NCBI GenBank assembly: GCA_964016885.1 | Contig: CAXHJY010000998.1 | Span: forward strand, 1 to 64,000 | Source of the DNA: Eledone cirrhosa | Lineage: Eukaryota | DNA length: 64,000 bases | Reading direction: 5' to 3' | Shown here: in pieces, positions 5,786 to 64,000 of the stretch | How the letters are laid out: every line of letters starts with the position of its first letter | Numbering within the stretch: position 1 is the first letter of the stretch | The notes under the pieces: generated by a model | The model's database searches: none | What the model was told of the DNA's origin: nothing | The model's input: the letters and a program-made list of their open reading frames with translations, nothing else | Made by a program: the position numbers and the translations under genes

Positions 5786-6200
5786 AACAAAGGAATTGTG
5801 GTAAGGAACCAGATGGACCATAACGCACCAGAGTACTCAATACTTAGGGTAGTAGAGTGGGAAATAGGAAAAAGTATGACCCCGACGGCAGAGCTCTAGC
5901 CGTTTCGACGGCTATTTCTGGACTAAATTAGAACTTTTGGCCTGGTGAATAAATAGCCAAGTTCGGCTATTAAAACACATCACTTTCAACGCTTGACAGT
6001 TTCAATCTTCCCTTATAAGGAAGTACCCCCTTGACAAATTCGGCTATTTATTCACCAGGCTAAAAATTCTAATTTAGTCCAGAAATAGCCGTCGAAACGG
6101 CTTGAGCTCTGTCGTCGGTGTCATACTTTTTCCTACCCTAAGTATTGAGTACTCTGGTGCCTTATGGTCCATCTGGTTCCTTACCACAAATCCATTGTTA
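5786..6200. mobile_element. Family B TA-embedded fold-back element (putative non-autonomous Penelope-like pLTR)
   Basis: Two inverted arms of the same roughly 200-bp unit flanked by TA-rich microsatellite; the right arm carries the hammerhead. Confidence 0.7.
6021..6128 (+). ncRNA. Type I hammerhead, U3-A8 core (family B), with a few substitutions
   Basis: TTGACAA at 6031-6037; CGGCTATTT/AAATAGCCG stem II; GAAA 6094-6097; ACGGC/GTCGT stem III; GTC then GGTG (one stem I mismatch). Confidence 0.7.
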
Positions 6201-6480
6201 TACACATATATATATATATATATATATATATATATATATATATATATATATATATATATATATATATACATATATATATATATATATATATATATATATA
6301 TATATATACACATATATATATATATATACATATATATATATATATATATATATATGCATATATATATATACATACGTACATACCTATACACATGTATATA
6401 TAGGGATATATCTATACACGGATATATATATATATATATGTGTGTGTGTGTGTCACTGTAGAGTGCTATTATTACTAAAT

Positions 6481-6731
6481 AATTGCGTCTACTTTTGGCA
6501 CAAGGCCAACAAATACCCAGTGTATTACTGGTACTTTATTTTATCGACCTCATTAGGATGAAAGGCAAAGTTAACCTCGGCGGGATTTGAACTCAGAATG
6601 GCAAGGGCCGTAACTCTATGCGTCAAAGCATGGCATCCGACTCTCTACCGATACTTCTAATCCACTATTACTAAATAATTGCTTCTACTTTTGGCACAAG
6701 GCCAGCAATTAACCAGTGTATTACTGGTACT
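6481..6731 (-). mobile_element. SINE A, full plus partial copy
   Basis: High identity to 1314-1500. Confidence 0.85.
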
Positions 6732-7137
6732 ATTACTAAATAATACAGATTTGATTGACACACAAACATTACTAAACATATTTCAAAGTATCCCTAGTAA
6801 TAATTTGCTGATTTACAGGGTGGCGGTTTGGTTTGGGGCTTAAATGATGATGATGATGATGATGATGATGATGATGATGATGATGACGATGATGACGGTG
6901 ATGACGATGATGATGATGATGGTGGTTATGATGATGAGAAGGTGGTGGTGGAGGAGATGGAGGTACTGCCTAGCTAAACTAATCTTCAAACGTCTCGCCG
7001 CTAGTCTACCAAATGAAAACCGAAATTTACTTATCCTTTTCCTGAAAACTCTCTCTCTCTCTCTGTCTCTCTGCCACCCTTTCTCTCTCTCTCTCTCTCT
7101 CTCTCTCTCTCTCACTTTCTATATATATATATATATA

Positions 7138-7190
7138 ATTTCTTTTGGATGAAACAGTTCTGGTCCTGTAGGAGCCGTTTCTACATTAAG
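7138..7190 (+). mobile_element. Family C fragment
   Basis: ATTTCTTTTGGATGAAACAGTTCTGGTCCTGTAG. Confidence 0.6.
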
Positions 7191-7194
7191 TCAG

Positions 7195-7350
7195 ACATGG
7201 CCTGGGCCAATACTGACCGAAACCTATCAAAGTTGTCAAAACTATATACGTATATTACTATCGTCCCTTCCCTCGCGCATGAACTGAACTGACCAATCGT
7301 ATCAACATGATTTGTAGTCACGTGATTATACTCTCTTGACTGACAGCTTT
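7195..7350. promoter_or_regulatory. Candidate promoter-like island
   Basis: Two CCAAT boxes (7207, 7293), GTCACGTGA E-box (7317-7325) and CGCGCATG; no transcript evidence. Confidence 0.2.
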
Positions 7351-59527: not shown

Positions 59528-59721
59528 TAGGAACAAGTATGACCCCGACGGCAGCGCTCAAGTCGTTTCGACGGCTATTTCTGGACCGAAAAAGCCGTCA
59601 AAACGGCTTGAGCTCTGCCGTGAGGGTCATACTGTTTCCTATTACCCTCCCTACTACCCTAATTATTGAGTACTCTGGTGCGTTATGGTCCATCTAGTTC
59701 CTTACCACAATTCCTTCGTTA
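59528..59721 (+). mobile_element. Family B element with short inverted arm
   Basis: Same unit and TA flanks. Confidence 0.75.
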
Positions 59722-61477
59722 TATATATATATATATATATATATATGTATGTATGTATGTATATGTATATGTGTGTATATATATATATATATATATATAT
59801 ATATATATATATATATATATATATATATATATGTGTGTGTGTGTGTATACATATTCACATATATACACTTTTGTTAAAGTATTTTTTAATTTCTTTATTT
59901 ATCCCGTTGTCTTCTCTACAATACACTACATGTCACATGTTTATCTAACTTTCGATAACATCTGTAAGGCTATTGTTTGTAAATGGCATTATTTTATTCA
60001 TTATTGTATTTGTAAATAACAAATTATACAAACAATTTATTTTGAATACAATTTTGTAGACGGCAACTCCGTATAAGTCCGACGTGTATTTACATACTAA
60101 ATATTCTCACGAAAACTGATACACTTAAAACAAACGAATGCAATAAGCTCTCTTACTCATCAGTCACCTCAGGCGTCAGAAATGTCGTGCATAAAGTTGC
60201 TATTACTTAATATTGAGTCTTAATATTGAGTCCAAGGTTCGTGTCAGTGAGATCAGTATTCCGATAAGGCTCAAATGAGTCAACGAAATGAAAACAACGG
60301 AGTTCTTACAACTAGTCAAACAGAGACTACGTACACACACACATACACACACATATATACACATACATAAATATATACATACATGTGCATATATATATAT
60401 GGATATAACATACGTATAGTAGTAGTAGTAGTAGTAGTAGTAGTAGTAGTAGTAGTAGTAGTAGTAGTAGTAGTAGTAGTTGTTTTTGTTGTTGTAATAC
60501 TTGTAGTAGATTGTTAGTAATTAAGCGCAAAATGAATTGTATATATATATATATATATATATATATATATATATATATATATATATATATATGTATATAT
60601 ATATATATATATATATATATATATATATATATATATATGTATATATATATACATATATATAAATGAAAAAAATTTCATTTCTCACTTAGTACGGCTGATA
60701 CTTAAATTAAGTATGTATACGTACATACATATATGTATACAGACGTACAATAGTATGTATATACATACATGCACACATATATATGTACGGTAAATGTTCG
60801 GTAAACCCATACGTACATATATATATATATATATATATATGTGTGTGTGCATGTATGTATATACATACTACTGTACGTCTGTATACATATATGTATGTAC
60901 GTATACATACATATATATATATATATATATATATATATATGTGTGTGTGTGTGTGTGTGTGTGTTATAAATATATTATATATATATATATATCTGTGTGG
61001 GAGGGGTATATATATATATATATATATAAACAAATAAAAAAAATTAATACCGTAGAAGCAAACAAGCCAGCAATCGTTCCCGTGGTTATTAAGAATCGAT
61101 CGATTTGATGATTGATCATCGATGACTGGTTGCTATTATCGTTGATTTATTGTGACCATTGACATTAGCACGAAAGGAAAAATAAAACATATAAGAGGTT
61201 TGATGCAAAGATCATCCAATACAAACAAGAACATTCTTCCACGCCGTCCCCACACAGACAAAAGCAAAACAAACCTATTAACAAGCAAATACATAAGCGA
61301 CATAAAATATTTGTGTAACATTTCGACTGTGACCTCTTGACCCAGAGGTTACTAATTATATTGACCTTCACCGCGGCTCAACTTTTTGAATATCAAATAA
61401 TATTTAGTGTAAACAAATGGTTCTTAGATTGTTTTTTTCACATCGTTTAACTATAATATATATTATTATTTTTAGAG

Positions 61478-62222
61478 CTCACATCCCTCCGAGCTTAGCT
61501 TTGCCTTTCGTCGTGAAAGGGTCCATAAATTAAATGCCAGTAACGCACTTAGGTCGAGTTAAATTACCTTTCCCTACCCTTTAAAATTGCTGGCCTTGTG
61601 CCAAAAGTAGAACCAATTCTTATTAGAGTTAATATCCTGCCTGAGTTAGCTTTGCTTTTTTTATCCTTACGAAGACGATAAAATAAAGTAGCAGTATGGG
61701 GATCGATTTAATCGACTTTCCATTTACTCCAAATTGCTGACCTTGTGCCTAAATCAGAAACCATTATTATTTATTATTATTAATCCCACCGAGGTTAACT
61801 TTGCCTTTCATCATTACGGGGTCGATAAAATAAAGTACCAGTAATGTACTGGGTAAGTTGCTGGCCTTGTGCCAAAAGTAGAAACAATTATTATTAAATC
61901 CCGTCGAGGTTAACTTTGCCTTTCATCCTTACGGGGTCGATAAAATAAATTACCAGTAATGCACTGGGATAATTGCTGGCCTTGTGCCAAAAGTAGAAAC
62001 AATTATTATTATAAGGGTGGGTAGATTGGCAGTATCGGTAGAGCGTCGGACAACAAGCTTTGCGGTATATAGTTACGTCTATTTACGTTCTGAGTTGAAA
62101 TACCTCCGAAGTAAGCTTTGCCTTTCATCCTTACGGGATCGATAAAATAAAGTACCAGTAATACACTGAGATAATTGCTAGCCTTGTGCCAAAAGTAGAA
62201 ACATTATTATTATTATTATTTA
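61478..62222 (+). mobile_element. Head-to-tail array of five SINE A copies or 3' halves
   Basis: Repeated TTTGCCTTTCATCC..GGCCTTGTGCCAAAAGTAGAAAC units, each starting in the previous (ATT)n tail. Confidence 0.8.
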
Positions 62223-62996
62223 ATTTTTCCACGCGCGAATTAACCCAGTAGAGCAACAGCACAGCTAATACATTGTAATATATCCTTGTAATATATTTAG
62301 AGACCGACCTCACATCGGGGTAAGGTCCTGAATAACAGGATTAGTCTAAATATACCATAAGCACACACACCCACGCGCACACACACACACACACTTACAT
62401 ACACACACATATGTATATATACATATATGTGTGTGTGGGAGTGTTTATCGTCTATTAGAAATATCTATAAATGAAATATGTGTGTGCAACAGACCGAATA
62501 TATAGGAAATTCCAATCAATTGCACACACACATGGTAGACATACTATCAGAGACATACTAACACAGACACACACATATACATGGTAGACATACAACACAC
62601 ACATATATATATATAAGTGTAAACATACTAATATATATATGTATATATAAATATACATACATATATATATATATATAGAGAGAGAGAGAGAGAGAGAGAG
62701 AGATGTATATATATATATATATATATATATCCAGGCACACATATACAACCTTACTTACACACACTCATATATAATAACATATAGTAGATATAAAGTAGTA
62801 TATTGAAAAGCACACACACCCACACACATACATTATATATATGTGTGTTTGCGTGTGTATATATATATATATATATATATATATATATATATATATATAT
62901 ATATATCTTAGAAAGTGAGGGTTTTTTTTACAAAATGAAAAATAACCGGTGTCCTACAGATGTGAGAAAAACCACAGACCCTCCAGCTCAACTCTA

Positions 62997-63032
62997 CTAT
63001 TGAAAAGCAGAAGAACTGCAAAACCGGTAAAG
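62997..63032 (+). ncRNA. Minimal hammerhead, U3-A8 type (family G), G12 mutated
   Basis: TTGAAAA-GCAG aagaa CTGC-AAA-ACCGGT-A-AAG; its lesion differs from that of the 43.5-kb copy. Confidence 0.55.
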
Positions 63033-64000
63033 GAACCAAATAAATATATATATTTTAAAAAAAATAAGACTCCAGTTGCATTTTCGATTTCATCTTTTTT
63101 TCTTTATATATATATATATACAGCCGTCAAAATCATATAATGTCTTCTTCAATCAAAATATATTTGTTTCTACTGCTCCAAATAAAATTTAATGCAATGA
63201 AATATTTTGATAAAAAAATTGAAAAATGAAATATATTCCTTTCAGATGTGTAATATTATTATCAAATCAAATTTTTTTTTTCCTCTCGAAACCTATTTGT
63301 CGCTATTTCAAAGAAAATACACACAAAAAAAAACAATGAAAAATCCCTTTCAAACTAAAAATACTGTCTTTCTCTTAAACCATTAATATTTTCTTCTAAT
63401 CAAAGACTATTTTGGTTTCAATCAAATATTTTTCATTGAAACGAAAGTTCGCCTTTAATCGAATAAACTCCCTCATCAATCAATCATTTAAGCATTAATA
63501 TCTTCCAATGTCATCAATTAAAAAAAGTAATTATGGTTTCTAATTTAGGACCAAGGCCAGCAATCTTTAGGGAAGGAAAGTGGATTATATCGACTCCATT
63601 ACTTGATTGGGGTTTTTTTATCGATCCCGGAAAAGGGAAAAAATATATCCGTTGCTTTACCAATATTGCCAATCCAACGCCATATATTATACGAAATAGA
63701 AAATATTTTCCTTGAAATATAGATAATTTTCCTTTTAATTAAAATATATATAGTTTATCAGACCATTGTTTTTTTTTTTGTTTTTTATCTCGTAACATTT
63801 TATTTACAAATGTATCTATCTTTTTCTCATCGATACTCTAAACCTTGACACAATCCCACACAGATCCAATTAATATTAAAATACATTAGGTTAGAATAAT
63901 TTCATATATTTATTTTTTCTTGTTTCTGCTAATACAATATAATGAGAATATATATGTATATATATGTGTGTATATATATATATATGTAGAGAAAATATTT

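Follow-up and report, generated by a model that had tools for sequence, protein, structure and literature searches.

Penelope-like elements (PLEs), which encode a reverse transcriptase (RT) and a GIY-YIG endonuclease (EN), are the closest described systems to the repeats considered here: seven hammerhead-bearing families (B, C, D, E, F, G, and J) that share the (TA)n microsatellites of one 64,000-nt stretch of a 3.0-Gb animal genome of cephalopod-like repeat content (G000:C1025:1-64000; "the window" below means this whole stretch). Among described PLEs, the Hydra clade has a CxCX5C linker, always carries a hammerhead, and inserts into (TA)n; DKG with a CX4CxxC-type linker marks Neptune and Nematis; PLEs with inverted 5'-truncated copies and a 30–40 bp tail on one end are known, as are non-autonomous PLEs in an alga (Craig et al., 2021; PMC8557442). 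Many families of minimal hammerheads per genome have been described in PLE pseudo-long terminal repeats (pseudo-LTRs), with a palindromic helix III, and including a U3-A8 variant in S. mansoni, a 2-bp helix I in D. virilis, and opposite-strand pairs 100–700 bp apart (Cervera and de la Pena, 2014; PMC4209133).

The PLE PAc has two RT start sites that bound the tail, and ribozyme cleavage is unnecessary in vitro (Frangieh et al., 2024; PMC11167929). Rotifer Penelopes have palindromic junctions, and non-coding sequence between their pseudo-LTRs (PMC3846280). Retrozymes and their tie to PLEs are treated in PMC7229834 and in a preprint (10.64898/2026.07.22.740005). For hammerhead-bearing PLE families in cephalopods the literature search gave only passing counts, and supplements or repeat libraries may hold them: 235 Rfam hammerheads are given for giant squid (PMC6962438), and 31 recently active Penelope-like families for an octopus, in a report whose partial text leaves ribozymes unmentioned (PMC13282606).

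The families of the window are read here as PLE ends, five of them from elements with RT and GIY-YIG frames, F from a unit without an open reading frame (ORF), and C untraced; they probably entered (TA)n through target-primed reverse transcription starting at fixed sites (probability of this reading roughly 0.85). A sequence-only reading had proposed at least seven sequence-distinct families at (TA)n. Letters were assigned through its motif order (B, GAGCTC; C, CTAG; D, ATATGTAT; E, ATACGTAT; G, ACGT; J, ACCGGT), and F is assumed to be the family with the core at 16394. Their distinctness stands, with no significant DNA similarity among the seven reference ends except between D and E near the ribozyme (E = 3e-6). 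For comparison, 60 stretches of 10 kb were sampled at random from 23 large contigs (600 kb), and whole-genome family searches gave 479–3,002 first-look candidates per query, which are lower bounds; individual loci carry L numbers.

The B, D, E, G, and J repeats represent the 3' ends, truncated on the 5' side, of RT plus GIY-YIG PLE lineages that belong to at least two clades. In each, an RT followed by a C-terminal GIY-YIG domain was found collinear with the 3' repeat; these are the long copies whose existence had been suggested as a check. For B, the GIY-YIG end was found in L004, L009, L012, L014, and L015, and RT plus EN in L158 and L159; the GIY-YIG frame precedes the core by about 760 nt, and the RT lies further upstream. 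G has RT plus EN in L163 and L165, with a 1.4-kb 3' untranslated region, and in L165 two ribozyme-bearing repeats 4.2 kb apart enclose the frame as a direct pseudo-LTR. No direct pseudo-LTR at both ends was found in the B, D, E, and J copies examined, all of which are 5'-truncated. J has RT plus EN 1.1–1.3 kb upstream (L167 and L170). Collinear EN matches were present at six of 20 D loci and ten of 20 E loci, with RT plus EN in L330 and L331 (D) and RT in L332 (E). GIY-YIG frames in L175 and L243 were ruled out as a parent of D or F.

By their motifs, B, D, and E appear to be members of the Hydra clade. The CxCX5C linker occurs in B (L156, L159, L160), D (L328, L330, L331), and E (L333, L334), whose translations have no cysteine pair within GIY-YIG and have CxxC and CxH close to the EN end; with the C-terminal GIY-YIG, the canonical hammerhead, and insertion into (TA)n, these features are as in Hydra-clade elements (PMC8557442). 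Unlike those, the ends here are about 80–90 nt apart rather than bounding a 30–40 nt tail, and the B core is U3-A8. A first call of B, D, and E as Neptune was replaced by Hydra on the criteria of the same paper. DKT, the Hydra-clade counterpart of DKG, was seen only in L212 and L326, loci without a proven tie to B, D, or E, whose copies end before the motif. G and J, with DKG, a CX4CxxC linker, and a C-terminal CCHH-type EN with a cysteine pair inside GIY-YIG, seem to be of Neptune or Nematis type (PMC8557442); they differ from these in the single end of G, without an inverted arm, and in the U3-A8 core of J. Pairwise RT comparisons gave 46% for B–D, 36% for G–J, and E = 0.02 for B–G. The N-terminal EN and lack of a canonical hammerhead that distinguish Naiad were found in none of the five parents, which have a C-terminal EN and canonical cores.

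Where the sequence-only reading saw a short tail, six families (B, C, D, E, F, J) instead have two fixed 3' ends, about 60–150 nt apart. In B, 161 of 192 incidental arms end at one of the two sites, 92 at +120 and 69 near +41 (counted from GAAA). Arrays of (TA)4 or more, with a background of 1.9–4.1%, follow the fixed ends in B (137/161 incidental arms), C (27/49), D (35/50), F (12/15), G (10/12), and J (27/32). The association is weaker in E, with none among four incidental copies and 28 of 52 when targeted loci are included. Of 57 head-to-head B pairs, 47 combine a long and a short end, one has two long ends, none has two short ends, and nine are unclassified; long plus short thus accounts for 47 of the 48 classifiable pairs (p ~7e-14 under independence). 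With targeted loci, the same combination was found in 29/30 pairs of D, 9/13 of C, 9/15 of J, 4/6 of E, and 4/10 of F, the rest being unclassified. Inverted 5'-truncated copies with the tail on one arm are found in B, D, E, and J, and also in C and F.

All six families with a short end have it at an element TAT, a triplet that starts at just 2–9% of positions; priming on nicked (TA)n is thereby suggested. Three B-like copies that read through the long end also show TAT after it, as does the G 5' repeat in L165. At the inner side of the B pairs, both arms lie on the same template in 52 of 62, and the arms are non-overlapping in ten. In 43 of the 62, the start of both arms falls 1–31 nt before GAAA, in the loop and 3' strand of stem II. 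Hence a complete ribozyme is present in only 11 of the 70 B arms from the window and random sample, and its 5' half is missing from most B copies. Parent frames, conserved cores, TA flanks, and inverted arms together bear out the earlier suggestion of a PLE origin with TA targeting and 5' inversions.

Joining of two complementary DNAs (cDNAs) is not the only way to obtain a short B hairpin. Palindromic inverted junctions in rotifer Penelopes have been interpreted as self-priming on an antisense template (PMC3846280), and later collapse of long unstable palindromes could have a similar outcome. The B arms meet within −10 to +9 nt in 46 of 62 pairs, which is compatible with either route. However, self-priming alone leaves the near-constant long plus short outer ends unexplained, and the ten pairs with non-overlapping arms are as expected of twin priming on one RNA, so that we regard self-priming or collapse as an unlikely source of the hairpins. 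A second possibility concerns the TA arrays, which might be created or lengthened by the insertions and not merely chosen as targets. There are 234 arrays of (TA)5 or more in the PLE-rich window, occupying 10% of its bases as against 4% of the random sample; C has its own TA/TG-rich tract, and J has an internal (AT)5. Targeting is nevertheless the published interpretation for Hydra-clade PLEs (PMC8557442), and array creation is judged improbable to about the same degree.

The ribozymes of all seven families are predicted to be self-cutting type I hammerheads, and B, D, E, G, and J have the terminal-repeat type I hammerhead expected of EN-bearing PLEs, as judged by sequence and covariation alone. 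A strict type I descriptor finds only three cores in the window. A relaxed descriptor, in which position 9 may be followed by an extra base, the base of stem II may hold a mismatch, and U3-A8 is accepted, gives eight matches, against a mean of 0.2–0.75 (maximum 2) in 40 local shuffles; in the 600-kb sample it gives 43, against four in one shuffle. In the window it does not detect C, E, G, or J. When 3' half-cores were anchored by family, 29 were located in the window: 13 are joined by an exact 5' half (three each in B and C, four in the D-group, and one each in E, F, and G), five by one with a single mismatch, and 11 by none, in keeping with the earlier count of about 15. Rfam at gathering thresholds gave no match in the window; the 402 matches ranked by E-value were set aside, the best 150 being nearly all microRNA (miRNA) models driven by microsatellites. 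A genome scan with RF00163, in which 74 of ~415,000 candidates were scored, gave 18 matches, none in the window.

Across all fetched loci, including targeted ones, 121 B sites comprise 41 exact cores, seven with one mismatch, and 73 without the 5' half, and 47 of 52 J sites are exact. Position 3/8 is T-A in every one of these exact B and J cores, whereas C3-G8 is found in the exact cores of C (37/54 sites), D-group (102/126), E (25/46), F (52/62), and G (20/22), so the 3-8 pair covaries between families. In stem I of C, GATTC/GAATC is replaced by GCTTC/GAAGC-type pairing between subfamilies. A dead J subfamily, proposed on a G12-to-A change, was discarded, since the change occurs in just two of 20 incidental copies, at CpG; its earlier excess came from the query sequence.

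Stem III remains self-complementary despite sequence change (ATACGTAT, ATGCGCAT, ATATATAT, ATGATCAT, ACCGGT, ACGT, ACTAGT). The description of stem III as very short or palindromic therefore applies as regards the palindromes, but not to stem length in B (5 bp) or C (4 bp), where the palindrome sits in the loop. Likewise, the downstream AATAAA said to be frequent is present in five of seven families, while C has ATTAAA and B neither. Much of this resembles the published PLE hammerheads (PMC4209133): many families, a palindromic helix III, an extra base after position 9, U3-A8, opposite-strand pairs, and the 2-bp helix I of G. In contrast to those, the full helix III of B and C could allow them to act as monomers. 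The copies in the window are as follows.

5787-6198: B two-armed insertion; complete U3-A8 hammerhead 6031-6116 (+)
7135-7171 (+): C fragment, 3' half-core alone
7952-8143: C two-armed insertion; cores 8078 (-) and 8090 (+)
11182-11327 (-): D-subfamily copy; complete core 11289
15512-15797: E in two pieces flanking a TA array; complete core 15769 (-)
15923-15985 (-): G 3' end fragment without ribozyme
16293-16650 (+): F 3' end; complete core 16394
16679-16873: B two-armed insertion; 3' half-cores alone
20903-21287: D two-armed insertion, left long end, right short end; cores 21090 (-) and 21182 (+)
22504-22780: F two-armed insertion; one-mismatch core 22699
26011-26166: B two-armed insertion without complete core
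27175-27256 (+): G 3' end fragment
35450-35505 (+): B short arm
36782-36974: B two-armed insertion, arms non-overlapping; complete U3-A8 core 36869
38776-38978: B two-armed insertion, arms non-overlapping; complete U3-A8 core 38873
42111-42185 (-): C copy; one-mismatch core 42149
42359-42402 (+): D/E-related one-mismatch hammerhead core, family not traced
42690-42861: B two-armed insertion
42956-43065 (-): J 3' end fragment
43399-43684 (+): J copy; one-mismatch U3-A8 core 43512
46864-46899 (-): B-type short arm
46914-47032 (+): C-subfamily 3' end; 3' half-core
47084-47187 (-): B long arm
51776-51985 (+): G 3' end; complete core 51867, stem I 2 bp
52034-52226: B two-armed insertion
52257-52385 (-): B long arm and short inverted piece
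53235-53325 (+): C copy; complete core 53267; short inverted head
53822-54015: B two-armed insertion, junction in ribozyme stem II
56168-56208 (+): B tail fragment
56663-56730 (-): D-related family, palindrome ATGCGCAT; core 56730 with shortened stem II
58402-58595: B two-armed insertion, junction in stem II
58663-58860: B two-armed insertion
59527-59719: B two-armed insertion
62911-63108: J two-armed insertion; one-mismatch U3-A8 core 63000

Family F is the sole one shown to be non-autonomous, as an ORF-less tandem unit of about 2 kb. Its units are 1,780–2,046 nt long, head to tail in L398 and L400, with a longest stop-free frame of 87–104 aa in four copies; against the parent frames, tblastn gave a single match of 19 aa (E = 0.03). 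At this length the unit is too short for RT plus EN, hence the classification. F had at first been taken for a short element whose 5' end is fixed, a view abandoned once the family had been extended to 2 kb. One F direct arm (L396, 6191-8203, oriented) runs from +69 to +68, exactly one unit, with its 5' end at the short site, and another (L317, 4766, oriented) has its 5' end at the long site (+205); such 5' ends may reflect copying of circular or multimeric RNA. The F body has an internal duplication of ~220–300 nt at ~75% identity (L316, L317, L400), and, ~100 nt before the ribozyme, a 10-bp hairpin that is the truncation point of many copies. A stop-free 1039-aa non-LTR frame, with RT and a C-terminal endonuclease-like region, lies inside an F copy at L318 1845-4961 (-). 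As an ORF-less tandem unit with one type I hammerhead each, F is like the metazoan non-LTR retrozymes (PMC7229834; 10.64898/2026.07.22.740005); it differs in its 1.8–2.05 kb unit (theirs are ~200–400 nt), in its occurrence as dimers or dispersed ends, and in having PLE ends.

Family C extends ~650 nt upstream into a TA/TG-rich tract common to its copies. RT and EN frames beside C copies (L323, L326, L327, L387, and others) belong to other families or have no link to C. In L382-L394, other PLE families have inserted into C's own TA/TG-rich tract. The window apparently opens, at positions 1-30 (+), with the final 30 bases of a C tail, and TA comes next.

Could all seven families be independent non-autonomous retrozyme-like elements, spreading via small circular RNAs? 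The tandem unit of F, the L396 arm of exactly one unit, and the lack of a traced parent for C fit such a history, as does a separate retrozyme-like tandem in a random locus (L259, minus strand ~700-1760; 310-nt units head to tail, one hammerhead each, with a TA array at the end). For B, D, E, G, and J it is refuted by variable 5' ends and by copies collinear into RT plus EN frames, and no short head-to-tail monomer array of these five was seen in the fetched loci; as an account of all seven it is very improbable. The sequence-only reading had itself favored a non-autonomous radiation without ORFs. This part of it holds for F and for the copies in the window, but not for B, D, E, G, and J, which run upstream into RT plus GIY-YIG frames of protein-coding parents elsewhere in the genome; for C no parent was found. 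Finally, although short B copies are near-perfect fold-backs between TA flanks, terminal inverted repeat (TIR) DNA transposons or miniature inverted-repeat transposable elements (MITEs) with TA target duplications and unconserved hammerheads, the outcome named beforehand as fatal to a PLE origin, can practically be dismissed in view of the unequal arms, variable junctions, lack of a fixed interior, RT plus GIY-YIG parents, and covarying cores.

For PLE ends inserted by target-primed reverse transcription, the following sequence of events is proposed. The endonuclease would cut a (TA)n tract by nicking each strand, and the two DNA ends would then prime at different places: one at the long start site, the other at the short one, where UAU(A) in the RNA would pair with the TA primer. 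Both cDNAs would mostly stop early and then join head to head, in B chiefly within ribozyme stem II. Early stops and joining of this kind would leave most copies short, ORF-less, and often with half a ribozyme. The same enzymes would also copy F, in trans. Tandem precursor RNA would be trimmed by the ribozyme, probably acting as a dimer via its palindromic stem III. PLE hammerheads reportedly cleave as dimers, according to a 2017 paper.

A bolder version may be put forward only tentatively, as something we think could well be wrong: that two PLE clades integrate by an asymmetric two-primer reaction, in which the (TA)n ends go to different start sites, the inner one by UAU pairing; that the cDNAs are joined at self-complementary sequence such as stem II, so that the hammerhead would serve integration structurally, apart from cleavage; and that several hundred thousand such events, with F as passenger, would have shaped a microsatellite-rich genome. 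Like the families here, PAc uses both strands of AT-rich targets and has, downstream of its ribozyme, two fixed start sites; unlike in PAc, the short-site TAT matches the target here and the two arms take different sites (PMC11167929).

Several observations weigh against the interpretation as a whole. Purified PAc, a lizard PLE, starts without homology to the cut DNA, and at the same site on both strands (PMC11167929). Few copies show the template beyond the long end, and for F this sequence matches TA only partially; G has one end and no inverted pair among 41 arms. No parent of C was found in 19 loci with 6–7 kb of upstream DNA. No intact ORF was found in any parent copy examined, the longest stop-free pieces being 243–550 aa; Pfam matches were weak and below curated cut-offs (RVT_1 4e-4 in G and 6e-6 in J; GIY-YIG 0.013 in G), and Pfam gave none for the B parent frames. 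As to the ribozymes, the D-group stems are paired in 97.9% of 97 cells over seven variants, a pairing level attained in none of 500 shuffles, with five of 15 pairs altered on both sides, but the alignment rows came from descriptor matches, which biases them towards pairing. Free and constrained folding yields a full three-stem fold for no family; competing structures appear in the predicted folds of C, E, F, and J, and stem I is only 2–3 bp in G and J. Low in vitro activity was also observed for minimal PLE hammerheads (PMC4209133).

In the 600-kb sample, clusters numbered 30 for B, ten for J, nine for C, four for D, three each for E and F, and one for G, with some cross-matching between D and E. 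These 60 clusters correspond to ~100 insertions/Mb for the seven families together, and the 43 descriptor matches less the four shuffled ones to ~65 hammerheads/Mb. Extrapolated very roughly, there would be ~150,000 B insertions and ~200,000 descriptor-positive hammerheads genome-wide. The first exceeds the Naiad maximum of ~37,000 (PMC8557442); the second compares with 2,000–9,000 in PMC4209133 and up to 120,000 in axolotl (PMC7229834). The high density in the window is partly local: B occurs there at ~0.25 insertions/kb, about five times the 0.05/kb of the random sample. The 43 descriptor matches of that sample (L256-L315) include additional hammerhead families whose stem III is palindromic, at least eight in number.

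Published PLEs already provide precedents for minimal hammerheads, U3-A8, tails, inverted arms, and TA targeting. As far as the literature search reached, the strict long plus short pairing, the inner-site TAT, joining in stem II, and the copy number go beyond what is in print. With all components published, the gain is one of refinement and scale, not a new system. Apparent MITEs, miRNA-like hairpins, or retrozymes become a large natural record of PLE insertion, and the pairing rule and inner-site TAT provide sharp predictions for the existing in vitro PLE assay. The most abundant family, B, is missed by Rfam and by descriptors that require C3-G8.

Some other sequences in the window may be mentioned. 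A U3-A8 descriptor match at 56369-56405 (+) lies outside the seven families and is possibly from an eighth, and 5' half-cores at 58948 (-) and 17033 (-) resemble a further family that is complete in L274. A non-LTR retrotransposon 3' fragment without a Pfam match lies beside a (TAA)n array at 54942-55232 (+); its translation looks like a Dong/R4-type restriction-like endonuclease end and shows similarity to the terminal part of the L318 1039-aa frame. An abundant family like a short interspersed element (SINE), with a tRNA-like head and an (AAT)n end, is found at 1306-1694, 6460-6730, 17864-18103, 30225-30396, 61780-62200, and other positions, the 17864-18103 copy being a fold-back and that at 1306-1694 a 209-bp tandem. 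Positions 2500-2910 form a long inverted repeat of another repeat family, copies of which are also present in L012.

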